A stretch of DNA of 64,000 nucleotides, taken from Dehalococcoidia bacterium. GTDB taxonomy: Bacteria > Chloroflexota > Dehalococcoidia > GIF9 > UBA5629. The translations under genes were made by a program, and so were the position numbers. The stretch covers positions 3,242 to 67,241 of the forward strand of contig DAOUFR010000112.1 of assembly GCA_034429715.1 (NCBI GenBank), written 5' to 3'. The notes under the pieces are model-generated. The model ran no database searches. It was not told the origin of the DNA and saw nothing but the letters and a program-made list of their open reading frames with translations. Positions 1,466-36,447 of the stretch are shown here, piece by piece. The stretch's first letter is position 1; each line of letters begins with the position of its first letter.

Positions 1466-1813
1466 TGGTGGAGGCGAGGGAGGGTCGAACTCCCCGTCCA
1501 GAAAAAAGTTGCCAGCACTTCTACAGGCTTAGTCTGCTCTTTATGCTCACCCGCTCAGCCTCTGCAGGCGGAGTTTAAGCGGGCCAGCTGATAAATCTTA
1601 GGCAATCCTCATCAGCATCGGGACTGTCGCACCCCGGCATTTCGTCGCCCAATCCAATCCCACCGGGACGAGGAAAGGTTGGACGAGCGGCCTGGTTAGG
1701 CTGCTACTGGAACTGCTTCGTTGGCAGTTGTGTTTTGCCACCGGATTAACGAGGTAGATGGCGCCTCGGCCTGCCGTACTGTGGGCTCTTCCCTGTCGAA
1801 GCCACGCGCCCCC
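1466..1813 (-). ncRNA. ssrA: tmRNA (SsrA), transfer-messenger RNA.
   Basis: The minus-strand 5' end reads GGGGGCGCGUGGCUUCGACAGGGAAG. The 3' end reads GGACGGGGAGUUCGACCCUCCCUCGCCUCCACCA, a tRNA-Ala-like T-arm and acceptor ending in CCA. An internal tag ORF, GCC AAC GAA GCA GTT CCA GTA GCA GCC TAA, encodes ANEAVPVAA* on the minus strand at 1725→1696. The length of about 348 nt is typical, and smpB lies immediately adjacent. Confidence 0.8.
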
Positions 1814-24797: not shown

Positions 24798-26171
24798 ATG
24801 ATTAGCATGTGGAACAGAATAGCCGTTATCGTACTTTTAATCTGTATCTCAACGCTCTCCCTGTCCTGCTTTATCTTTGAACGTGCCACCGATCATTATA
24901 AGGCGGGAAATGAATTATACAGCCAGAAGCAGTGGGATAAGGCAATCGAAGAGTATACCAAGGCTATCAGCATGGATTCCAATCAGCCCTTCTTTTACAT
25001 CAACAGGGCGCTGACCTACAACCAGATAGGCGAATATGATCTGGCTATCGCGGATTGCACCAGGGCAATAAACAAGAAGAGCAACATCGCATTAGCCTAT
25101 ACCACGCGCGCCTCCGCCTATAATGAAAAAGGCCAATATCAACTGGCATTGGCTGATTCACTGAAGGCTATTGAGCTGAGCCCCAAGACTGCCCTGGGCT
25201 ACATCAATAAGGGCTGGGCGCTCTACGGCCTGGGCAAGTTCAAGGAATCGATACTGGCCTGTACCGATGGTATCGCCGCCGAGCCGACCAGGGCCATGGC
25301 CTATATATTCAGGGCCATGAACCACAATGAGATGGGCAACTACGAAAATGCGATGGCTGACTGCAACAAAGCTATTGAGCTCGATCCCACGCTGCCGCTG
25401 GCATATGTCAACCGCGCCTGGGTGTACAACCAGACCGCTGTTTATGAAAAGGCTATTGAGGACTGCAACACGGCGATCAGTCTGGATCCCAGGATTGCCA
25501 CGGCTTACGTGAACCGTTCCTGGGCACAGACAGCCAGAGGTAATTTCGATCTCGCAATAGCTGACTGCGATACCGCCATCAAGCTTAATCCCAACCTGCC
25601 GGGAGCATATGTTCAACGCGCCTGGGCCTACTTCGAGAAATATCCATATGATCTTTCTAAAGACTGGTGGCAGATGGGCATGGATGACTGCAACAAGGCC
25701 ATTGAATTGAATCCCAAATCCGCCCTGGCTTATAACATGAGAGCACGCGGATATATTTTAAAGGAAGAGTACCGCCTTGCTATTGCCGATGCTACCAAAG
25801 CGATGGACCTGAGCTCAGAATTTGCACTGCCTGACATCACGCGCGCCTGGGCCTTTAATAATCTCCGCCTTTGGGACCTGGCCATAGAGGACTGTGACGT
25901 AGCCATATCCAAAAACCCCAAGCTGGCGGCGGCCTGGGCAAACCGTGCCTGGGCTTACAACGGCAAGGGCATGTTCGATAAAGCGCTGTCGGATATAAAC
26001 GAGGCCATCCGGCTTCAATATGACTTTGCCTGGGCTTATTTTACCCGGGCCATAATACATAAGAACCTGCATGATTACGAGCAGGCGAAATCCGACATCG
26101 AACTCTGCCTTCAATACACAACTGATCCCAAGCTTATCGAGGCCGCCAGAGCGCTCTACGCCACACTTTGA
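24798..26171 (+). CDS. TPR-repeat lipoprotein with about 11 or 12 tetratricopeptide repeats.
   Basis: Signal peptide with lipobox LSLSC. There are many repeats of the form AxxxxxxAIxLxPxxAxAYxNRxxAY. Confidence 0.8.
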   Translation: MISMWNRIAVIVLLICISTLSLSCFIFERATDHYKAGNELYSQKQWDKAIEEYTKAISMDSNQPFFYINRALTYNQIGEYDLAIADCTRAINKKSNIALAYTTRASAYNEKGQYQLALADSLKAIELSPKTALGYINKGWALYGLGKFKESILACTDGIAAEPTRAMAYIFRAMNHNEMGNYENAMADCNKAIELDPTLPLAYVNRAWVYNQTAVYEKAIEDCNTAISLDPRIATAYVNRSWAQTARGNFDLAIADCDTAIKLNPNLPGAYVQRAWAYFEKYPYDLSKDWWQMGMDDCNKAIELNPKSALAYNMRARGYILKEEYRLAIADATKAMDLSSEFALPDITRAWAFNNLRLWDLAIEDCDVAISKNPKLAAAWANRAWAYNGKGMFDKALSDINEAIRLQYDFAWAYFTRAIIHKNLHDYEQAKSDIELCLQYTTDPKLIEAARALYATL

Positions 26172-28042
26172 CTTATAACATATTTAGGTCTTATGATAAC
26201 AACATGAACTCACCGGCAGCACGGTTGGTCAACCTCATTTTATGTCTGGCTTTGCTTTTTTCTATCGGCTGTACTGCCTCTCCCGCCACGCCTGACGTGA
26301 TACCGGCTGCTTCACAGTCGATCCCGGCGGCACATACGAGAAAACTGCAAACATCTCCCTTCGAAGGCGGCAGCGCCGTCATTTTCGTTCTCAATCAGAT
26401 CGATGATGACAAATACATTGAGGCTGTGCAGGAGATTATCCGGGTCTTCGCGGAAAACGATGCATCCCTTGATGTCGCCGTGAAACCCCCTGAAAAGAAT
26501 TTCGGCCTGAACGAAAGCACCCGGGAACTGACCTATTTTTCTGATGCCGGTATCCTCGATACCAGCGTAGATGGCCATTACGTTAGCTGGCTGAAGCCTC
26601 AGACCTCGCTGACCGGTGACGAATACAAAACATTCACAGCTAACCTTGTATTGACTCGCGATCAGATTAAATACATATTCGGTTCGGCGGTTTTTTCCTG
26701 CTTACTGCCGACAGCGGCTATTAATGAGGCCAACTACAGGGCTCTACAGGACAGCGGCTTCAAGGTTATCGCTTACAGCGATTCAGATGCCCTCAAACCT
26801 TCAATCAAACCGGTGAACTGGTCGGGACAGGTGGATACCGGAGGGCTTTACCGTCTGCCCGTTGTTGGCAAAGTCGACCTTTCCCAGAAGTTCGATAACT
26901 CCACCGTGCTGTACGGTGCGGTTAAACAGAGCATCAACTCTCTCGGCGTGGCCGTCATCGAATTACCCGTCGCTTCGGTGCTGGACTTAAATAACAAACC
27001 TGATCCTGCAAAATTACTGCAGTTGTCAGCGCTCGTTAAGTCCTGCCAGGGTCTTGGAGAGGTTACCACGCTGGAGAACTGGTACGAGTATATCATTAGC
27101 TGTCCGCTGGATTCCCAGGGCTTAAAGCGGCCTCTTCCCCCTTACCACGGTGGACCCATTATCATTTTCAGGCTGGACGATGTTGCCAGAGGTTACCGGG
27201 AAGATGTGGTGCACGAAATAATCAAGGTCTTTGAGCGAAACGGCGTGCCGCTGGACTGCGGAGTCGTCTCCAGCGTGGACGGTACCGAATCATATGAGAT
27301 CCCCTGGCTGAAACAATACGTCGATGACAACGTGGTTGGCATCAGTGTTCATGGCTATGACTGGACCTATTATCAACTGGATATCAAGCAGAATTACCTG
27401 AAGCATCTTGATGAAAATCCGTGCATTAATGTGTATGCCGCCAAGGCAGAGGCCGAAAAAGCCAAGGTTACCTATGAGGAACTGAAATACAAACTGATAC
27501 AGGCACGATGCAAATTCTTGAAATATTTCGGCATCAATCCCGTATCTTTCACCGTCCCGACAGATTATTACGACGAACTCGGATATAAAGCGATACAGGA
27601 CGCCGGATACAAAGTGTTCTCGGTACACAAATCGGTTGAACCATGCCCATCCCTGAAGCCTGTTGACTACAACTGTCAAATAGATCTGGAAAAAGGCATG
27701 TACCGCATCCCCACAGCATCCGACATGTGCATCTGGTACAACTGCCAGTGGACCAATGTGATCGATCTGGATAAGCCTATGAAACAAAAGGATTACTGCA
27801 TCTATGTAGACGCCTATGGCGAATCGATGGAGTATAACGACTACGGGATCTCAATCTGCACAACTATGAATACGCTGGGAGTGGCCGCCATAGGGTTACA
27901 TCCCGATTGTTTTGTGGATAAATACGGCAAGCCGGACATGGCCAAGCTTGAAAAAGTGGATACGCTGATCAAATGGTTCAAGTCATTTGCGACGATAATG
28001 ACCTTCGAGCAGTGGTACCGTTACCAAACGGGCGATAAATAG
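26168..28042 (+). CDS. Lipoprotein containing two tandem polysaccharide-deacetylase-like (NodB-like) domains.
   Basis: Lipobox SIGC. There are two internal repeats of about 300 aa. Repeat 1 reads GGSAVIFVLNQIDDDKYIEAVQEIIRVFAEN, and repeat 2 reads GGPIIIFRLDDVARGYREDVVHEIIKVFERNGVPL. The RLDDV motif is typical of the deacetylase family. Confidence 0.5.
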   Translation: MTYNIFRSYDNNMNSPAARLVNLILCLALLFSIGCTASPATPDVIPAASQSIPAAHTRKLQTSPFEGGSAVIFVLNQIDDDKYIEAVQEIIRVFAENDASLDVAVKPPEKNFGLNESTRELTYFSDAGILDTSVDGHYVSWLKPQTSLTGDEYKTFTANLVLTRDQIKYIFGSAVFSCLLPTAAINEANYRALQDSGFKVIAYSDSDALKPSIKPVNWSGQVDTGGLYRLPVVGKVDLSQKFDNSTVLYGAVKQSINSLGVAVIELPVASVLDLNNKPDPAKLLQLSALVKSCQGLGEVTTLENWYEYIISCPLDSQGLKRPLPPYHGGPIIIFRLDDVARGYREDVVHEIIKVFERNGVPLDCGVVSSVDGTESYEIPWLKQYVDDNVVGISVHGYDWTYYQLDIKQNYLKHLDENPCINVYAAKAEAEKAKVTYEELKYKLIQARCKFLKYFGINPVSFTVPTDYYDELGYKAIQDAGYKVFSVHKSVEPCPSLKPVDYNCQIDLEKGMYRIPTASDMCIWYNCQWTNVIDLDKPMKQKDYCIYVDAYGESMEYNDYGISICTTMNTLGVAAIGLHPDCFVDKYGKPDMAKLEKVDTLIKWFKSFATIMTFEQWYRYQTGDK

Positions 28043-28054
28043 CCCGAATCAGTA

Positions 28055-29035
28055 TTACAGCCGTTGCTTCTTCCGATTTTTATACCAGGCTATGCATTTC
28101 TGCATACCTGATTCCAGGCCTGTCAGCGGTTTATATGCAAGCAGCGTCTCAGCTTTAGTTGTGTCTGCTATGCGGTTAAATACCTCGATTTCCAAGGACC
28201 TGCGGCGGTCGTAATCAACATACTTTGTCTTTACCTTATCTCTCAGATCGAGGGAGGCCAGAACCATATCAGCCAGCACATTAATCGACACATCTTTTCC
28301 TGTGCCGAAGTTCAACACCTGGTTGATGCCTTCATCCATGATACCGGCCAGCAGCGTCATATGAATGGTATCTCCGATATATGTAAAATCACGCGTCTGG
28401 TTCCCATCGCCGTAGATAATGATCTCCTGTCCCGCCAAAGCCCTGCTAATAAAACGGGACAATACAAAACGGTCGTCCTGACGCGGCCCGTATGCATTAA
28501 AATAACGTAAAGCTGTGTACTTGAGACCGAATTTCTGATAGTACGCTATGCAGAAATGTTCGCCTATCAACTTGGTTAAGGCATAGGTGGATTTGGGATT
28601 GAACGGCCCCTCTTCCACCATGGGTTTAACGGAATCGCCGTAGACCTCCGAAGAAGAAGCAAAGACAAAGCGTTTGATCTTGTTCCTGGCCGCCAGAGAA
28701 ATCACATTGGAAGTGCCTACTACTTCAACATTGAGAAGATTGACCGGCTCATCCTGCGTTTCCTCCACTCCCACAACAGCTGCAAGGTGGAAAACCATAT
28801 CCTGGCCCTTAAATAACGGAGCAATAGCCCGGGTATCTGTGACATCCAGCCGGTGTACTGACAGGTTCTTGCCCTCCTTGCGGAGCTCTATCTTGTTGCC
28901 GCACAACATGGTATCGATCACAGTTACACTGGCGCCAAGGTCGATTAGTTTTTCCACAAGGTGCGATCCGATAAATCCTGCTCCCCCTGTCACAAGGACC
29001 CTCAGTCCGCTGTATTTCTTAAGGATATCACTCAT
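28055..29035 (-). CDS. NAD-dependent nucleotide-sugar epimerase/dehydratase (extended SDR family).
   Basis: N-terminal VLVTGGAGFIGSHLV Rossmann motif and a YxxxK active site (YALTK). Confidence 0.85.
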   Translation of the reverse strand: MSDILKKYSGLRVLVTGGAGFIGSHLVEKLIDLGASVTVIDTMLCGNKIELRKEGKNLSVHRLDVTDTRAIAPLFKGQDMVFHLAAVVGVEETQDEPVNLLNVEVVGTSNVISLAARNKIKRFVFASSSEVYGDSVKPMVEEGPFNPKSTYALTKLIGEHFCIAYYQKFGLKYTALRYFNAYGPRQDDRFVLSRFISRALAGQEIIIYGDGNQTRDFTYIGDTIHMTLLAGIMDEGINQVLNFGTGKDVSINVLADMVLASLDLRDKVKTKYVDYDRRRSLEIEVFNRIADTTKAETLLAYKPLTGLESGMQKCIAWYKNRKKQRL

Positions 29036-29096: not shown

Positions 29097-30629
29097 TTAG
29101 CTATCGGCCTTCGACGCTTTGGACGGCTTGGCCTGTAGTTCAATCAGCACCTCAGCGGGTGCTGATTGCTGGCTGCGCGGAGCATCACCGATCCTGGTGA
29201 CCCTCTCACGTTTGAGATAAGTACCCCCGGCCACGATTATATCTAACAGAGCCTTGATCATAGTGAAATCCAGGAACTGTTTGTATCCGATGATGAAGAA
29301 AGGTGAATACAGTGCCAACTTGAGATCATCTTCTGCCACCAGTATAGCAATTATGGATAGCAGCAACTGCAACACGGCAAAGAGCGCAAAGGCCATTACC
29401 AGTGTCATCCATTCGCCGTCTATTATCATTATGACCGACGTTACCATAACGACCAGGCTGGCCAGCGGCACCAGTGTCATGGATAACAGCATATAGGGAA
29501 ACGTCAGCTTGTTCATAATTCCAAACCTGGGATTAAAAAAGGCGTCTCGATGTTTCCAGAAATTTTGAAAATCGCCGCGGAACCAGCTCAGACGCTGTCG
29601 GTAAACATCCTTGATAGTCTCCGGCGCCTCTGTGTAACAGACAGCTTCGTTGCTGCCATGAAGGATCTGATGCGCTTTAAGCATCTTGATGGTTATATCG
29701 AAATCCTCAAGCAGATAGTCGGGATCATAGTATCCCGCTTCCTCAAGGGCCGACTTACGAAAAGCGCTGAAAGCACCGGACGCTACGGTCAGGGAGCCGA
29801 AATTCTCAAAAGCCCTCCTCACGATCTGTATCTGGACGATATACTCCAACGCTTGCAGCTTTGTAAGTAGATTATTGCGGTTAAAAACCTTTAAATTTCC
29901 GGCCACGCCCGCCACCTGAGGATCCTCAAAGCCCCTGACCATCTCGTTTATGGCGCCGCGTGCAATCATACTGTCGGCATCCACGGTCATCACTATTTCA
30001 CCCGAGCATATGGCAATGCCCGTATTCAGCGCAGCGAATTTTCCGCCGTTAAGACGCCGGACCACTTTAACACCGCGATGGCTGAACTCGGTGGCCACAG
30101 AATAAGTATTGTCTTTGGAACCATCATCAACCACGATGATCTCTTTATTGGGATAATCGGCCTCGATCAGTGTTTCCAGTGTCCTTGCCAGTACTTTTTC
30201 CTCATTGAATGCAGGTACAATGATACTGACTCTCGGCTTATAGGAGCTTGGCTGGAATACCTCTTTTTTCTGTTTTATTTTGTGGAAAATCGCCAGAGGC
30301 ACGGTGAGGAAATTGATCAGCATGGTAAATACTAAAGAAACCATGAGCACATATATCAGGGCCGAAGGGACCACATCCCAGAGCGTTACCACGAAGATAA
30401 TGAAGATAATGACAAATATCACAAGCAACGACGTGAGATTCTGCCACTGGCTTGGCTTGGACTCACGGGTCTGTTTTCCTTTAAGCGCCCTGGACAGAAA
30501 ATGAAATATAATGATGACGGCTAATGCGCCCAGCGCAATCCAAACCGACTCGACGGGCATAAAGTAGAATATACCCATCAGCAATGTCAGAAAAAGGATA
30601 GCGACGACAAAAACAGCTATATTTCTCAT
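29097..30629 (-). CDS. Membrane-embedded family-2 glycosyltransferase, a processive synthase type (PgaC/cellulose-synthase-like).
   Basis: TM segments flank a GT2 catalytic domain: IVPAFNEE...VVDDGSKDNT, then TVDADS, with a QRLSWFRG (QxxRW-like) motif. Confidence 0.85.
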   Translation of the reverse strand: MRNIAVFVVAILFLTLLMGIFYFMPVESVWIALGALAVIIIFHFLSRALKGKQTRESKPSQWQNLTSLLVIFVIIFIIFVVTLWDVVPSALIYVLMVSLVFTMLINFLTVPLAIFHKIKQKKEVFQPSSYKPRVSIIVPAFNEEKVLARTLETLIEADYPNKEIIVVDDGSKDNTYSVATEFSHRGVKVVRRLNGGKFAALNTGIAICSGEIVMTVDADSMIARGAINEMVRGFEDPQVAGVAGNLKVFNRNNLLTKLQALEYIVQIQIVRRAFENFGSLTVASGAFSAFRKSALEEAGYYDPDYLLEDFDITIKMLKAHQILHGSNEAVCYTEAPETIKDVYRQRLSWFRGDFQNFWKHRDAFFNPRFGIMNKLTFPYMLLSMTLVPLASLVVMVTSVIMIIDGEWMTLVMAFALFAVLQLLLSIIAILVAEDDLKLALYSPFFIIGYKQFLDFTMIKALLDIIVAGGTYLKRERVTRIGDAPRSQQSAPAEVLIELQAKPSKASKADS

Positions 30630-30689: not shown

Positions 30690-32876
30690 TCACGTCAGTT
30701 TTCTCAGGTCCTGCTGCTCAATAATATCAATTTTTTGCTGCATGGCAAATTGTTTTGCCTGTGTTGATATATCCGACAGCGCCAGGAATACTTTGTTGCG
30801 AATACCTGCATCGAAAGCTGCGGCGTCGAACTTGGACAATTCATCCAGTCCACATACCTGACCGGCCTCGTTGCCGATGCCGATCGCAATAGTGGGTACC
30901 ACTATCTTATCGTCACGCCTGGCGAATATGTCGAATATATGCTCGATGCCTGATTTACCGAGGATCAGGGCCCGCTCATATACTTCGTAGCCCTTATTGC
31001 GGAGGAATCTGACAATGATTCCCCTCGCGTTGGCCGCTGCCGAACCGGAATGGTTTACTCCCGCCTCCACCCTGCTCTGCATTCCTATATTGGAGCGGTC
31101 AAGATGCGTGATATCCGCAACCACCGTTGCCAGGGTCTTTGCTTCAAACGCCCTGATCATCTGACGGCCGGCGAAATTCAATGCTTCCTGGCCGAGCTTG
31201 GGGATCGCTATTACCACTTTGTAGTTAATGCCGATATCATAGGCCCTTGTATCGAATCTGAAGAGAGATTCAAGCCCGACCTCCGGTTCCCCCGATGGGG
31301 CCACCAGGATACCTATACCGAGATTGACCTTGGTGATAATATCGTCCCTGATAGCAAGTACATCCACGGTATGCACTGCGCCGGAACGGCCCGTCAGCTG
31401 AGCCAGCTCATGAACCTGATATCCCCGTTGCTTCAGGAAATCGACAAGCTGTGTTTTCGGTTTCAGCTGGAATTCCAGCCATCCCTTCTTATCGGGGCTG
31501 AACTGGTACGAAGAAGCCTCGACTTCTTTCAGATCCTCAGAGCTCCAAACTTTACGCGTTTTCATATTGCGCCATTTGACGACCGGGACCGTAAATACCT
31601 CGCTACAATCCTGGCACCTGTAGTGTATGCCGACATTGCGATAATCGGTGCCGATCAATCTCAAATCCTTTCGACACTTGGGGCAGACGTACCTGCTGTC
31701 CTGCTTGAAATCCTTATCAAGTCCCACGTATCCGCAGGAAAAATGCTCTACGAGTTGCCCTTTGATGATATTGGAGGAGTCACAGCGCGGGCACCTTTCA
31801 ATGGGAACCAGCTGAAACAATCCGTCGGGATCGACATAAAACTTTTCATACGGTTGTTTGATCAGTATTCCCTCATTGGATAGAGACTCAAGTATGTTTA
31901 TCGTGTCTCCCTCTGAGGTATCGATCAGGCTGCTAACGGACGGGTATGCGTATCCCATTTTGTAGCTGAAATCGACAACCGGATTGATATCGGGAATTTT
32001 ACCGCTTACCAGCGCATCAACCAGTTTGATAACCCTCGCATCCTCGAGAATTGCCGCGCCGGCATCCTCTTGAGATGGCTGTGCCTTGGCCACGTAGGCA
32101 GACTGCTGTGCGGGAGGATTAACTATGACGGGGGAGCTCGGCTTTTTGATATCGCGCCCAAGCGGAGGTACTACTACAGGCGGTTGCTGCTGCATCTGAG
32201 GCGCTGCCGGCCTGGGAACTACTACCACCGGTGGCTCGGGCGCCGGGCTTACCGGCGTCGAAGGCACAGGCGGGGCCGGCGGTACATATGGTTGCTGTAC
32301 AGGCGGCACCTGGGTTGGCGGAGAAGCTTCGTACTGCTGAGGTTCGGGCCGGGATCTGATAATAATCCTTTCCTGTCCCGGGGAAGCAGGCTCCGGGGCA
32401 CGCGCTGGAGCAGCCGCTTCTCTCTGCACGGGTATTGACCTGGAAGGTGGTTTAATAGCTTCTTTCGGGGCAGCGGCCGCCGGCTTTGCGGCTGCATCTT
32501 CCGTAACTCCTTCCGTGCCGGGCCGTCTCAGCAGCGCTTTGGTACGTGCCAGCAACTCCCGCGGGCTGATGGGTTTGCGCAGATAAAGATCAAAACCCAG
32601 CTCCTCTACACGAGACCATGCATCCGAGTCCGGGATAGTCCCGAGAAGAACGATCAAGGCGCCATGCTGCTGCCTTATCTTGAGGCACGCTTCATAGCCG
32701 CTGACATCCGACAGCTCATCGTCAATTATTACGACATCGTAGTTGGTTTTATCCATCATTACCAGACCGTCAAGACACCCCGATGTCCCGTTTGCATCAA
32801 GGCCGCTCTGCTGCAGGATCTCGACGTTTTTCTCTTTTAAGACGGGATCGCTTGAAAGAAAGAGAATTTGACTCAT
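30690..32876 (-). CDS. Atypical response regulator: REC domain, Pro-rich linker, Cys4 zinc-ribbon region, and two tandem restriction-endonuclease-fold-like modules.
   Basis: REC has the acidic pocket DVVIIDDELSD and the K (LRKP). The linker is about 120 aa and Pro-rich. The Cys ribbon is CPRCDSS...CPKCRKD...CQDC. The two roughly 110-aa repeats carry G(R/K)SG..H..D(V/I).A.RDD...IGIG, reminiscent of Hjc/Mrr SxGxxD(I/V)(V/I)A. Confidence 0.6.
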   Translation of the reverse strand: MSQILFLSSDPVLKEKNVEILQQSGLDANGTSGCLDGLVMMDKTNYDVVIIDDELSDVSGYEACLKIRQQHGALIVLLGTIPDSDAWSRVEELGFDLYLRKPISPRELLARTKALLRRPGTEGVTEDAAAKPAAAAPKEAIKPPSRSIPVQREAAAPARAPEPASPGQERIIIRSRPEPQQYEASPPTQVPPVQQPYVPPAPPVPSTPVSPAPEPPVVVVPRPAAPQMQQQPPVVVPPLGRDIKKPSSPVIVNPPAQQSAYVAKAQPSQEDAGAAILEDARVIKLVDALVSGKIPDINPVVDFSYKMGYAYPSVSSLIDTSEGDTINILESLSNEGILIKQPYEKFYVDPDGLFQLVPIERCPRCDSSNIIKGQLVEHFSCGYVGLDKDFKQDSRYVCPKCRKDLRLIGTDYRNVGIHYRCQDCSEVFTVPVVKWRNMKTRKVWSSEDLKEVEASSYQFSPDKKGWLEFQLKPKTQLVDFLKQRGYQVHELAQLTGRSGAVHTVDVLAIRDDIITKVNLGIGILVAPSGEPEVGLESLFRFDTRAYDIGINYKVVIAIPKLGQEALNFAGRQMIRAFEAKTLATVVADITHLDRSNIGMQSRVEAGVNHSGSAAANARGIIVRFLRNKGYEVYERALILGKSGIEHIFDIFARRDDKIVVPTIAIGIGNEAGQVCGLDELSKFDAAAFDAGIRNKVFLALSDISTQAKQFAMQQKIDIIEQQDLRKLT

Positions 32877-32921: not shown

Positions 32922-33671
32922 TTATATATACTCGACCGCATTCCGGGCGATTTTATATCCGTTTTCTTCCTGGATAATTATTTGCGGGCTATCGGGATTT
33001 TCTTCCAATTTTTCACGCAGGTGGCGTATATATTGCTGCAGATTTGATGTGCAATCCACATATTCTATACCCCAGACCTTGGTGAGTATGTCGTCCCCCG
33101 ATATCGTCTTGCCTTCATGCGAGACAAGATATTTAAGAAGGTTTAATTCGGTGGTCGAGAGTTTAACCTGTTCCCCGTTCTTCTGAACCGTGCCTGCTGA
33201 TACGTTCATCCTGATTCTCTTTGCTGCAGGCACACTCCTGGCTTCGGTCGCCGGTGCAGCTTTAACTTCCACGCTCTTTTTAGGGGCCTCTCTTTTGCCA
33301 CGGTGCCTGAATACAGCCTTCACGCGAGCGAGAAGCTCGTTATGATTAAAAGGCTTCACAATATAATCATCCGCACCCATCTCCAGACCCCTCACTTTAT
33401 CCGTCTCGTCACCCCTTATCGTGAGTATAACGATGGGTATATCGCTGTAGCTGCGTATCTCCTTCAGAACCTTCATACCGTCCATGTCAGGTAACCCGAG
33501 GTCCAGAATGATCATAGCGGGTGATTCAGACTTCATCAATGCGAGTCCCTCTGCACCCTTTACGGCCGGTATTATCTTGACTTCGGGCATGTGCATCTCG
33601 AATATCAGATTGGTTACTTCCCTGATATCGGCGTTATCCTCTATGAGCAGGATTTTCAATTGTCCCGGCAT
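32922..33671 (-). CDS. OmpR/PhoB-family response regulator: REC plus winged-helix, joined by a long Ala/Lys-rich linker.
   Basis: REC has ILLIEDN...IILDLGLPDMDG...YIVKPF. The C-terminal LT..E..LL..L......G...S...I...VWG is trans_reg_C. Confidence 0.85.
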   Translation of the reverse strand: MPGQLKILLIEDNADIREVTNLIFEMHMPEVKIIPAVKGAEGLALMKSESPAMIILDLGLPDMDGMKVLKEIRSYSDIPIVILTIRGDETDKVRGLEMGADDYIVKPFNHNELLARVKAVFRHRGKREAPKKSVEVKAAPATEARSVPAAKRIRMNVSAGTVQKNGEQVKLSTTELNLLKYLVSHEGKTISGDDILTKVWGIEYVDCTSNLQQYIRHLREKLEENPDSPQIIIQEENGYKIARNAVEYI

Positions 33672-33688
33672 ACGACTATTACTCCACC

Positions 33689-34927
33689 TTATTTTTCATG
33701 TATCGGCAACGAGAAAGAGAAGGTGCTACCTTTGCCGACATCGCTCTGCACCCAGATTGCACCCCCATGTAACTCCACAATTTGCTTGCTGATGGCCAGC
33801 CCCAATCCCAATCCGGGTATTCCCGACCTATCAGAAGACGGATGATAATAAGGGATGAACAGCTTCCGTTTCTCTTCATTGGGAATGCCCGGTCCCGTGT
33901 CCTGCACGTTGATCACCAACCTGTTCCCATCCTTGGCTGCCCTGAGAAAGATCTGTCCGCCTTCCGGTGTAAATTTAATTGCATTGGATAAAAGATTCAA
34001 CAACACCTGTTCAATACGCTGATCGTCAGCATTGATCTTAATGTAAGGTTCCACTTCCAAACTGAGCGTCTGCTTTTTCTGCCTGGCCAGTGACAATACC
34101 TGGTCAGCGACCTCAGCAGCCAGCATCGAGAAGTCGAAGTCCTTCTTTGCAATACCGTATGATTCATCCTTATTTTTAGACAGGTTGATCAATTCGTTCA
34201 GGCGGTTTTGCAGGCTCGATGCGCTACGCGAAATATTCTCGGCCAGTTTAAGCAAAACCGTCTCGTGCCGCCTGTCCAATTCCTCAATCAACAGGCCTGT
34301 GGAAGCTATGATGGCGGTAAGAGGCGTCTTCAACTCGTGGCTCAAAGCGCTTAAAAACAGATGTGTATGTGTAATCTCATCTTGTTGTTTGGCAGCCTCG
34401 TTATCAACAGGCCCGCTCGAAACTTTACGACAAACCTCCGATATGCTGGCACTGACGGCTGCCATTAATTTGAGTTCATTGACCGTAAAGATATCTGCCT
34501 TGGCAGATAATCCGCCGATAATCCCCAGCAGTTGTCCCCCCGAGATTATCGGGGAGGCGATAAACGACAGGAGCCCGCTTTGTACGGCTGATTCCCAGCG
34601 GTAGTTGGCATCGTTCGCCATATCGTTGCAAAATAGCGGTTTGCGTGTCTGAGCCACTACTCCGATGATGTCATTGCCCACGGTCATTGCCTCCAGTTCC
34701 TTGACAAGTTGATCCGGTAAACCGTGGTGCAATACCAGCGTCAGAGTTTTATTACCCGGGCTGTACTTTTGTACCCAGCAGACATCAAGATCAATTACAT
34801 TCCCGAGCTCCCAGAGCACACCGTCCAGTACCTCCCTTTCCGACAACGAACTGGATACGATATCGGAGATATCAGATAGAACGTATAGATACTTGTTCTT
34901 TTGTTGTCCCTGTTGCTGCATACGCAA
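33689..34927 (-). CDS. Cytoplasmic sensor histidine kinase with GAF, HisKA and HATPase_c domains.
   Basis: There are no TM segments. The GAF region is followed by the H-box [15 protein letters not shown] and then N, G1 and G2 boxes ([26 protein letters not shown]). Confidence 0.85.
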
Positions 34928-35112
34928 TCAGCTTCCATTATAACTAAAATCATCAATATGTCAATCGCAGCAGCCCGAAAAAGCTCCTGCGACTTACGAT
35001 GCGACAATCATAACACGACCACACTGATCACATTTTGACACGGTTTCATCTCACAGTTAAACTATGCATAATCTGATTGATTGGTAAATTAATAAATATC
35101 TGTGAGGGAAAA

Positions 35113-36447
35113 ATGGCAAGGGCAGAATTAACCGTTAACGATCTGAGAAATCTGGAAAGCAGGATCCGGGATAAATCAGCTGACATCGGGGTTGTAGGTT
35201 TGGGATACGTGGGATTGCCCCTGGCGCTGGCCTTTGCCGAAGCAGGATTCAATGTAACCGGCGTTGACGCCGATAAGGGACGGGTTAATAAGATTACACG
35301 GGGCATATCTTACCTGCTGGATATAGAATCTGCACGCCTTAAAAAGGCTGTTGCCAAAGGAAGATTAAAGGCAACCACCAGCCAATCGGCGCTGCGCAGA
35401 GTAGATACTATCATTATCTGTGTTCCCACCCCGCTTACTAAAACCAAGGAGCCTGATCTGACCTATATCGTCAGCGCCACCAACGATATCGCACGTTTTC
35501 TGAGGCTGGGGCATCTGGTTATTCTGGAGAGCACTACCTACCCGGGCACCACGCGGGAGATTGTGCTGCCGATATTGGAATCCACCGGGCTTAAAGTGGG
35601 CGTAGATTATTTCCTGACCTTTTCACCCGAACGTATCGATCCGGGCAGCCGGAAATTTACAATCAAAAACACGCCCAAGATAGTCGGTGGTATGGAACCC
35701 ACATCCACGAAGCTCGCCGCGTTGCTCTACCGGCATGTTTCAGACAGGGTGCTCGAAGTATCCACGCCGGAAGTAGCCGAGATGGACAAGGTCTTCGAGA
35801 ATGTATTCCGCAGTGTGAATATCGCTCTGGTAAACGAGCTCGCCAAACTCTGCGAAAAGATGAAGATTAATGTGTGGGAGGTCATCAAGTCCGCTTCCAC
35901 AAAACCCTTTGGATATATGCCGTTCTATCCGGGTCCCGGTGTGGGCGGGCATTGCATTCCTCTTGATCCGTACTATCTCGCCAGCAAAGCCAGGGAGTAT
36001 TTTTTCCATACAAGGTTCATCGAGCTGGCTGCCGAAATCAATGAAACGATGCCTGAGTACATTGTCGAGCAAACCGTGGCTGCGCTCAACACAAGAAGTA
36101 AAAGCCTGAAAGGGTCAAAAATTCTTATACTGGGTGTGGCCTACAAGAAAGACATCGAGGACGTCAGAGAGTCACCAGCATTAAGGGTTATCGAACTGTT
36201 GATCGAGAAGAAAGCTGCGGTGCACTACCATGATCCTTACATCCCCGATTTCAGGGAGGGCAACCATAAGCTCCGCTCGATCAAACTCACAAAAAAAGTA
36301 TTCGGCAATTATGATTGCGTACTAATCGTGACCGATCATAGTTGCTATGACCTGAAATCGATAGCAAAGGAAGCAAAGCTGATATTCGATACGCGCGGAT
36401 GCACGGTTGGCATCAACGCCGCAAACATCATCCGCCTTGGCGAATAG
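35113..36447 (+). CDS. Nucleotide-sugar dehydrogenase (UDP-glucose/UDP-ManNAc 6-dehydrogenase family).
   Basis: IGVVGLGYVGLPLALAFAEAGF is the NAD motif, and GGHCIPLDPYYL holds the catalytic Cys. Start set at 35113, which is preceded by GAGGGA. Confidence 0.85.
   Translation: MARAELTVNDLRNLESRIRDKSADIGVVGLGYVGLPLALAFAEAGFNVTGVDADKGRVNKITRGISYLLDIESARLKKAVAKGRLKATTSQSALRRVDTIIICVPTPLTKTKEPDLTYIVSATNDIARFLRLGHLVILESTTYPGTTREIVLPILESTGLKVGVDYFLTFSPERIDPGSRKFTIKNTPKIVGGMEPTSTKLAALLYRHVSDRVLEVSTPEVAEMDKVFENVFRSVNIALVNELAKLCEKMKINVWEVIKSASTKPFGYMPFYPGPGVGGHCIPLDPYYLASKAREYFFHTRFIELAAEINETMPEYIVEQTVAALNTRSKSLKGSKILILGVAYKKDIEDVRESPALRVIELLIEKKAAVHYHDPYIPDFREGNHKLRSIKLTKKVFGNYDCVLIVTDHSCYDLKSIAKEAKLIFDTRGCTVGINAANIIRLGE

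Follow-up and report, generated by a model that had tools for sequence, protein, structure and literature searches.

A Dehalococcoidia response regulator that joins TackOD1 to two predicted inactive nuclease folds, and its pairing with a GT2 synthase gene

Response regulators in which a receiver (REC) domain is followed by the output domain TackOD1 (PF18551, 'Thaumarchaeal output domain 1') are known from archaea. The domain was described with eleven conserved Cys residues, forming five CXXC motifs and one HXXC motif; its function was termed obscure, it was reported to be present 'in some bacteria', and no nuclease-like partner domain was mentioned for it (Galperin et al. 2018, PMC5847659). 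Archaeal double zinc ribbon proteins (arCOG06883) are located mostly in thaumarchaeal type IV pilus loci, and they have been proposed as auxiliary structural or regulatory components of these loci (Makarova et al. 2016, PMC4858521). The present analysis concerns a 728-amino-acid protein, called the regulator below, which is encoded on the minus strand of a 64-kb stretch of DNA (64,000 nucleotides of contig DAOUFR010000112.1, from a Dehalococcoidia bacterium); the whole of this stretch is referred to as the window. In the regulator, a receiver and a long Pro-rich linker precede TackOD1 and a tandem pair of predicted inactive restriction-endonuclease-like folds, a module that we call iREase2, and its gene is nearly always followed by that of a family 2 glycosyltransferase (GT2) synthase. 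The constant GT2 pairing, together with the pairing of its relatives with pilus genes, suggests that the regulator controls cell-surface structures and does not cut DNA.

Domain architecture of the regulator

Three domains of the regulator (REC, TackOD1 and Mrr_cat) exceeded their gathering scores in a Pfam scan, and the open reading frame was confirmed as a preliminary description, made from the letters alone, had given it. The layout, with the basis of each assignment in brackets, is as follows.

30690..32876, minus strand: whole open reading frame, REC, Pro/Ala-rich linker, TackOD1 and two predicted inactive Mrr-type nuclease folds (open reading frame list, translation, Pfam)
32523..32870, minus strand: REC domain, residues ~3-118 (PF00072, E 4e-11; alignment with CheY and the neighbouring OmpR protein)
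32037..32522, minus strand: Pro/Ala/Val/Gln-rich low-complexity linker, residues ~119-280 (composition)
31503..32036, minus strand: TackOD1, residues 281-458 (PF18551; AlphaFold2 (AF2) model; ligand conservation; isoelectric point (pI); Nitrosotalea alignment)
31119..31457, minus strand: predicted inactive restriction-endonuclease-like fold, copy 1, residues 474-586 (repeat, family hidden Markov model, AF2 topology, no ExK)
30693..31025, minus strand: predicted inactive restriction-endonuclease-like fold, copy 2, residues 618-728 (Pfam Mrr_cat, Foldseek, no ExK)

The two C-terminal repeats (residues ~476-583 and 620-724) share 38% identity over 106 amino acids with a BLASTP E value of 1e-21, far beyond chance, and residues 620-727 in the second copy match Mrr_cat (PF04471) at E 1e-8 and 35.5 bits against a cut-off of 21. 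An AF2 model of residues 273-728, obtained from a 30-sequence alignment with a mean predicted local distance difference test (pLDDT) score of 81, contains two alpha-beta-beta-beta-alpha-beta domains with a disordered loop between them. The leading Foldseek matches of this model in the PDB are all of the PD-(D/E)xK type, namely AF1548 (1Y88, E 5e-6), Cdn1, MspJI, Can2, VC1899 and AspBHI. When the C-terminal half, or a profile built from both repeats, was used to search PDB sequences, chance zinc-finger matches or none were returned. The preliminary description had recognised two repeats of about 110 amino acids and had likened them to Hjc/Mrr-type nucleases, and both proposals are supported by these results.

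The active site of the two folds was examined in an alignment of 45 domain copies taken from the regulator, its orthologues, its paralogues and versions fused to the pilus ATPase PilB. The strand-2 Asp of the PD motif is present in both copies of the regulator (D505 and D649). At the place where (D/E/Q)xK would be expected, strand 3 has the sequence LGIGIL in the first copy and IAIGI in the second, and an (E/Q)xK motif in strand 3 was found in none of the 45 copies, in which this strand is hydrophobic throughout. The absence of a clear ExK had been remarked on earlier, and it holds for both repeats; the search of their alignment for catalytic residues yielded the Asp and no (E/Q)xK. In several copies, especially those on PilB, A, S, H, N, G or L stands in the place of the Asp, and the proteins concerned otherwise keep the family signature. 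Kept across the 45 copies are GY, GxSG, an Ala, DD, FDxxAYDxGI and PxLSxxAxxFAxxQxI. When 16 of the aligned copies were sampled, invariance was confined to eight residues (L, Y, S, H, A, D, G and A), and within the orthologous group E490, H502, D505, D511-D512, D542, D547 and K553, with their copy-2 equivalents, are near-invariant. A counterpart of Q217-A-K219 of EcoKMrr was found neither by gapless back-counting nor by motif-based alignment. In hhalign, only the helix-strand segment after strand 3 could be aligned with the EcoKMrr catalytic domain (42 columns, probability 32%), so that the statement of a missing QxK is based on this anchor together with the predicted strand positions and the conservation pattern.

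An orthologue-like protein of 827 amino acids (P0138) carries three inactive nuclease folds, the third of which matches PF22722 (NA-iREase1, named in Pfam as NACHT-associated inactive restriction endonuclease 1) at 33.4 bits against a cut-off of 27. Faint matches to PF22722 also occur in P0109, and the regulator itself gave none. Its comparison with the PADLOC defence models gave no match, the best E value being 0.05. From the lack of an acidic-x-Lys motif in strand 3, the dispensable Asp, the PADLOC result and the PF22722 match in a homologue, we conclude that the two C-terminal domains are, as judged by their sequences, inactivated nuclease folds.

The match of residues 281-458 to TackOD1 is strong (E 5e-32, 111.3 bits against a cut-off of 32) and extends over profile positions 9-187 of 188. 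The preliminary description had likened the zinc-ribbon region to an output domain of TACK-archaeal regulators, which was correct, and had also stated that the C-terminal half is not a standard output domain, which was half right, since residues 281-458 match a named one. TackOD1 of the regulator is composed of an acidic winged-helix-like part (residues 281-358, pI 4.4) and a basic zinc-ribbon part (residues 359-445, pI 8.9). Across 30 homologues, the pI of the winged helix ranges from 4.2 to 5.3 with a median of 4.4, while that of the iREase copies is near neutral. In the AF2 model, a helix-helix-helix-wing arrangement is followed by beta ribbons bearing the Cys/His ligands, and the block pLDDT over TackOD1 is mostly 81-90, with one block at 75. 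The predicted zinc ligands are C362, C365, H378 and C381 for one site and C398, C401, C421 and C424 for the other, and each of the eight positions is kept in 24-30 of 30 homologues. The Cys pairs CPRC (362-365), CPKC (398-401) and CQDC (421-424) had been listed before, to which the HxxC motif of H378 and C381 is now added. In addition, K400, R413, K434 and R436 are invariant in the zinc-ribbon part.

Over 142 amino acids, TackOD1 of the regulator is 31% identical to that of a Nitrosotalea devanaterra protein. The first and last CXXC motifs of the archaeal domain (CPQC and CVKC) align with DPDG and KTRK in the regulator, which therefore has only three CXXC motifs and one HXXC motif, compared to the eleven Cys residues of the archaeal domain. 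Because these two motifs are absent, the domain is a reduced variant, which probably binds two zinc ions. A second AF2 model, built for TackOD1 alone from 10 sequences, had a pLDDT of only 40-60 in the ribbons, and its Foldseek search gave nothing better than E 0.47; the insignificant matches (E > 0.4) comprised the winged helices of MarR, TFE-alpha, FeoC and Z-alpha as well as RPB9-type ribbons. A word-index search with the TackOD1 profile yielded 17 proteins only, mostly fragments.

The receiver matches PF00072 over residues 10-111 (43.5 bits against a cut-off of 30.2), and its residues were aligned with those of 29 homologues, of CheY from E. coli and of the OmpR protein encoded beside it. 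Ser8 and Ser9 occupy the positions of D12 and D13 of CheY, the Mg2+-binding acidic pair, and Gly79 stands at the position of T87, where the homologues also have Gly. The phospho-acceptor D52 (D57 of CheY) and K101 (K109 of CheY) are retained in the regulator and its homologues. At the positions of the acidic pair, the homologues have SS, SN or SG, and the protein of locus L037 has SA. The receiver seen in the preliminary description is thus present, but the acidic pocket that it had regarded as intact is not, and the alignment indicates that the active site is degenerate. The linker is also present and is longer than had been estimated, with ~160 instead of about 120 residues, including 39 Pro and 27 Ala among 162. 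The total length of the homologues ranges from ~610 to 980 amino acids, a variation that probably stems largely from the linker region.

Conserved pairing with the GT2 synthase and with pilus genes

On the minus strand of the window, the regulator gene lies in a run of five genes in the order kinase, OmpR, regulator, GT2 and epimerase, which are separated by gaps of 17, 45, 60 and 61 bp.

33689..34927, minus strand: GAF-HisKA-HATPase histidine kinase, first gene of the putative operon (Pfam)
32922..33671, minus strand: OmpR-type response regulator with a canonical receiver (E-D pair, D, T and K; Pfam, alignment)
29097..30629, minus strand: membrane GT2 synthase of 510 amino acids, PgaC/IcaA/NodC-like, 60 bp downstream of the regulator (Pfam, NCBIfam)
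28055..29035, minus strand: NAD-dependent sugar-nucleotide epimerase/dehydratase, last of the same-strand run (Pfam, NCBIfam, synteny)

The GT2 synthase best resembles PgaC/IcaA and NodC in NCBIfam, with scores under their cut-offs, and no PilZ or other receptor domain was found in it by Pfam. The kinase and the OmpR gene lie directly upstream on the same strand, as had been noted at the outset; the degenerate active site of the regulator's receiver makes it less likely that the kinase has two alternative partners, as had been suggested along with this.

The distribution of the family was examined by a scan with one genome per species. The complete C-terminal module, which consists of TackOD1 and both repeats, occurs in ~58 Dehalococcoidia/Chloroflexota loci with identities down to 34%, and 19 thaumarchaeal loci match only residues 41-188 of the query, the TackOD1 part. 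Among 1.84 billion representative proteins, only 466 match a profile of the tandem module at E <= 1e-3. Ten long representatives were scanned with Pfam, and all ten have one of two architectures, either (REC)-TackOD1-iREase(2-3) or iREase(2-4)-MshEN-T2SSE. The TackOD1-iREase2 regulator family is small and almost exclusively found in Dehalococcoidia/Chloroflexota.

Among species-level orthologous loci with at least 48% identity, counting the assessable cases, the GT2 gene lies directly downstream of the regulator in 28 of 31, the OmpR gene upstream in 21 of 24, and the kinase gene upstream in 19 of 22. In a group of ~40% identity (L037, L038 and L042), only the pair of REC-TackOD1-iREase2 and GT2 is present, in an unrelated neighbourhood and without an adjacent kinase or OmpR gene. 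The receivers of L037 and L042 are more degenerate still than that of the window, and the N-terminal sequence of the L037 receiver, read by eye, has Ser-Ala-Lys at the positions of D12-D13-F14 of CheY. The pairing was also seen from the side of the synthase in metagenomes. There, 33 loci had a GT2 of at least 50% identity and sufficient sequence upstream of it, and in 30 of them the module immediately precedes GT2.

Paralogues of ~450 amino acids that lack REC and consist of TackOD1 and two repeats (34-41% identity) are associated with type IV pili. In L043, L045, L052, L057, L059, L061 and L064, such a paralogue opens a type IV pilus operon and is succeeded by PilB, PilC and pilin genes, and a prepilin gene follows it at 0.3-0.9 kb in L039, L041, L044, L048, L050, L053 and L054. 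Of 20 assessable distant loci, PilB-PilC is located downstream in 11, pilin in 7 more and GT2 in 3, one locus belonging to two classes. All 20 therefore adjoin pilus genes or GT2, and the association with pili among the REC-less paralogues amounts to 18 of 20, whereas the window gene itself is paired with GT2. Both kinds of members can coexist in the same genome, as in isolates H111_81 (L019 and L064) and C0_12 (L035 and L061).

The same tandem module is also attached to PilB itself. In L055, L056, L058 and L062, the paralogue is followed by four Roadblock/LC7-like genes and then by a PilB that carries its own tandem module ahead of MshEN and the T2SSE ATPase, as assigned by Pfam. PilB-type proteins with the module at the N terminus further include P0151, P0156, P0164, P0170 and P0188, which have two copies or, in P0151, possibly up to four. 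Representative loci are as follows.

L037 7160-10546 and L042 7422-10912: orphan pairs of REC-TackOD1-iREase2 and GT2
L056 11836-14244: PilB of 802 amino acids with an N-terminal tandem module, the first copy of which has Ala in place of the PD aspartate

The other features of the window are mainly located around the putative operon.

34937..34964, minus strand: promoter-like site TTGACA-16-TATAAT, 12/12 to the sigma-70 consensus, 10 bp before the kinase start codon (consensus scan only)
35035-35063, plus strand: promoter-like site, 10/12, facing the divergent sugar dehydrogenase (consensus match only)
35077..36447, plus strand: nucleotide-sugar dehydrogenase, UDP-ManNAc/UDP-GlcNAc 6-dehydrogenase-like and TviB/WecC-like, divergent from the kinase and syntenic
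26168-28042, plus strand: syntenic protein of 624 amino acids with a hydrophobic N terminus and a borderline DUF2334 match in its second half (26.4 bits against a cut-off of 26)
1466-1813, minus strand: transfer-messenger RNA (tmRNA) gene (Rfam RF00023, 154.8 bits; ARAGORN tag peptide ANEAVPVAA)

In a consensus scan, no terminator-like site was found in the gaps between the minus-strand genes, the sole match on this strand being inside the regulator gene. The 624-amino-acid protein might be an enzyme of this locus that modifies polysaccharide outside the cytoplasm. A PilB-like gene was not found in the window by tblastn. A defence-system reading was ruled out by the PADLOC result together with the sugar-nucleotide and polysaccharide genes of the neighbourhood. 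The tmRNA gene indicates that the window is bacterial, and an archaeal origin was ruled out by this gene and by the best homologues, which come from Dehalococcoidia metagenome-assembled genomes and are 97% identical to the regulator at the nearest.

Several further observations concern individual relatives. Close homologues bear the public names 'response regulator' or 'restriction endonuclease', the latter in NCBI records (P0001, P0003 and P0008), and the fragment P0110 is labelled 'general secretion pathway protein E' by JGI, a name that probably derives from the PilB-fused copies of the tandem module; 'restriction endonuclease' and 'general secretion pathway protein E' are likely to mislead as names for these homologues. 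At L056 9595-11726, the Roadblock/LC7-like genes are four tandem paralogues of ~140 amino acids with a weak MAPKK1_Int (Roadblock/LC7-type) match, as they are in L055, L058 and L062, and no small GTPase was seen beside them in these four loci. A few kb upstream of the pilus operon, at L056 1386-2072 on the minus strand, a phage-integrase-family protein has a small zinc-ribbon insertion. In Candidatus Nitrosotalea devanaterra (L069 5624-11135), read by eye, the REC-TackOD1 gene is located beside that of a 609-amino-acid PilT-like ATPase with PIN- and KH-like parts. Its further neighbours are a single-domain receiver, a small helical protein and a membrane histidine kinase, which makes the neighbourhood a signalling cluster with no obvious pilus operon.

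Function of the regulator and alternative explanations

We tentatively favour the view that the protein has no catalytic role and acts, at the protein level, as a dedicated regulator or adaptor of the exopolysaccharide synthase encoded next to it. In such a mechanism, iREase2 would be the unit for docking or oligomerisation, with TackOD1 as a second interaction surface. The Pro-rich tether would join TackOD1 and iREase2 to the degenerate receiver, which might take phosphate inefficiently from the co-encoded GAF kinase or might merely bind the kinase/OmpR pair, so that polymer synthesis would be coupled to the signal sensed by the kinase. In view of the long tether and the degenerate receiver, one could speculate that binding to the kinase/OmpR pair, or tethering to it, may contribute to the control no less than classical phosphorylation does. 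This action at the protein level is favoured because the module is also found on a machine component, PilB, and because a short and constant gap separates the regulator gene from that of the synthase, with which it appears to be co-transcribed, also in loci that have no kinase and OmpR genes. It is further favoured because the operon already holds a canonical transcription factor of the OmpR type and because of the acidic winged helix and the near-neutral nuclease folds. A broader proposal, which we hold with considerable doubt, is that iREase2 is an unrecognised docking or ligand-sensing unit that wires signalling to pilus ATPases and to GT2, with TackOD1 as a partner surface.

A number of points weigh against the adaptor. 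It is derived from gene order and one shared module, and the gene order has exceptions, since GT2 is missing at three of the orthologous loci (L001, L030 and L032) and three GT2 loci, e.g. L116, have no upstream module. The orientation of the domains to each other in the AF2 model is unreliable (predicted template modelling score 0.50). An Asp at +1 after Ser8/Ser9, D10 in the regulator, is present in most homologues, and it might stand in for the absent acidic pair of the receiver. Moreover, winged helices, zinc ribbons and inactive nuclease folds are classic nucleic-acid-binding elements, the zinc-ribbon part is basic with a pI of about 9, and a position beside pilin or pilB is typical of a gene for a transcription factor.

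The main rival, which appears rather unlikely, is accordingly a DNA-binding transcription factor whose winged helix and zinc ribbons, perhaps with the dead nuclease folds, would bind an operator and switch the GT2 operon; the paralogues would switch pilin and pilB operons, and iREase2 would be an oligomerisation or sensing domain. The modelled helix-helix-helix-wing with its beta ribbons, the winged-helix and RPB9-type matches in Foldseek, weak as they are, and the invariant basic residues of the zinc-ribbon part are consistent with this explanation, as is the location of the genes immediately upstream of pilin, pilB or GT2. Inactive nuclease folds act as DNA-binding modules in other systems, and PF22722 is itself named as an inactive restriction endonuclease. 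However, the winged helix is acidic in all 30 homologues and its third helix has no conserved basic residue, while every Foldseek match of TackOD1 alone was insignificant. In addition, the regulator appears to be co-transcribed with its supposed target across a gap of 60 bp, in an operon that already encodes an OmpR-type factor, and the fusion of the tandem module to PilB ATPases would be left unexplained.

That the tandem module serves as a small-molecule receptor, responding for instance to a nucleotide second messenger, is improbable. In that case one ligand would coordinate polysaccharide synthesis and pilus activity via the module on the regulator and on PilB, much as c-di-GMP works in other bacteria by way of PilZ and MshEN domains. 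The residues kept in both copies cluster at the former active site (GxSGxxH, the D/RDD end of strand 2, FDxxAYDxGI and the Lys that starts strand 4), and small residues in strand 3 (G/A-x-G) could open a pocket there. The module lies N-terminal to MshEN in PilB, which is the position of regulatory domains, and the GT2 synthase itself has no receptor domain that could serve this purpose. On the other hand, no known ligand-binding family matches, the sequence searches of the PDB were empty, and the eight residues invariant over 16 copies look structural rather than pocket-like; to our knowledge, no PD-(D/E)xK fold acts as a second-messenger receptor. The least supported explanation, and a highly unlikely one, is the signal-controlled nuclease that the preliminary description had envisaged, with a rearranged active site formed from E490/E634, D505/D649, RDD and K553/K695. 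The fold, the Mrr_cat match, the near-invariance of acidic, His and Lys residues among the orthologues and the public name 'restriction endonuclease' could be cited for it, and migrated catalytic residues occur in some PD-(D/E)xK families. Nevertheless, (E/Q)xK is absent from all of the aligned copies, the PD Asp is replaced in several members, no defence-system model matches, and homologues have weak matches to the inactive-nuclease family PF22722. Among the conserved neighbours no methyltransferase or DNA-metabolism partner was found, the partners being the GT2 synthase and pilus genes. Collectively, the regulator is neither a new enzyme nor a new defence system.

The REC-TackOD1 architecture, Mrr-type folds and inactive nuclease folds are already known, and the presence of a named output domain removes part of the novelty that had first been claimed for the protein. 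The fusion of this domain with a tandem dead-nuclease module, on the other hand, is undescribed in PMC5847659. Our literature search found no description of the TackOD1-iREase2 fusion, of its two-zinc TackOD1 variant, of the module on PilB, or of the near-obligate pairing of TackOD1-iREase2 with a GT2 synthase or pilus genes. Searches on PilB with a restriction-endonuclease-like N terminus, on type IV pili and response regulators of Dehalococcoidia, and on inactive restriction endonucleases in response regulators returned nothing relevant.

The role of TackOD1, a named output domain of obscure function, becomes experimentally approachable by three handles beyond PMC5847659, which are the fixed fusion with tandem inactivated nuclease folds, the occurrence of these folds on PilB ATPases, and the near-constant neighbour genes, which encode a PgaC/NodC-like synthase or pilus proteins. 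Should iREase2 be an adaptor or a receptor, it would explain the control of pili and exopolysaccharide in Dehalococcoidia, an abundant and hard-to-culture lineage, and would hint at the role of the pilus-locus proteins of Thaumarchaeota. If it proves to be a docking or sensing unit, this would give the first lead to the function of TackOD1, that of the thaumarchaeal proteins included, and iREase2 would take the role that the c-di-GMP receptors PilZ and MshEN have in other bacteria. Moreover, the annotation of homologues as 'restriction endonuclease' in public databases is probably misleading.

Comparison with known systems

The archaeal REC-TackOD1 regulators (PMC5847659, PMC4858521) share with the window protein the order of a receiver followed by TackOD1, and relatives are associated with type IV pilus loci in Thaumarchaeota as well as in Dehalococcoidia. 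The archaeal proteins have neither the nuclease-fold module nor the long Pro-rich linker; that of Nitrosotalea devanaterra (L069), in which 305 amino acids hold a receiver, a winged helix and the zinc ribbons, ends just past the ribbons. The window protein differs from them further in its bacterial host and in having a GT2 synthase as its partner gene.

With the Mrr-type nucleases (PF04471, EcoKMrr and AF1548/1Y88), the window repeats have the alpha-beta-beta-beta-alpha-beta fold in common, and their strand-2 motif GxSG...D is the counterpart of GDGGID in Mrr. Unlike Mrr, the repeats have no (E/Q)xK, their Asp is dispensable in relatives, and they occur as tandem copies, while the protein as a whole has neither the DNA-recognition N-terminal domain of the Mrr type nor a restriction or defence context. 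Closer in this respect are the inactive restriction endonucleases of the PF22722 type, in which, as in the window repeats, the nuclease fold is kept without the catalytic motif as a non-catalytic module. The window family differs from these in having no NACHT/STAND partner, and the signature GYxV...GxSGxxH...DD...FDxxAYDxGI is specific to this small family of 466 representatives.

In its architecture, the regulator is reminiscent of Myxococcus FrzS, in which a receiver with a degenerate site is followed by a long non-globular segment and an interaction module, and which is genetically linked to type IV pili or exopolysaccharide. The likeness is one of architecture only: FrzS carries a coiled coil and not TackOD1 or nuclease folds. 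The window receiver keeps D52 and K101, so that it may still be phosphorylated. The PilB/MshE-type ATPases (MshEN, PF05157) differ from the window protein, which has no ATPase. Some PilB proteins of Dehalococcoidia nevertheless have its very tandem module, and this presence on PilB ATPases ties the module to the control of a surface-polymer machine.

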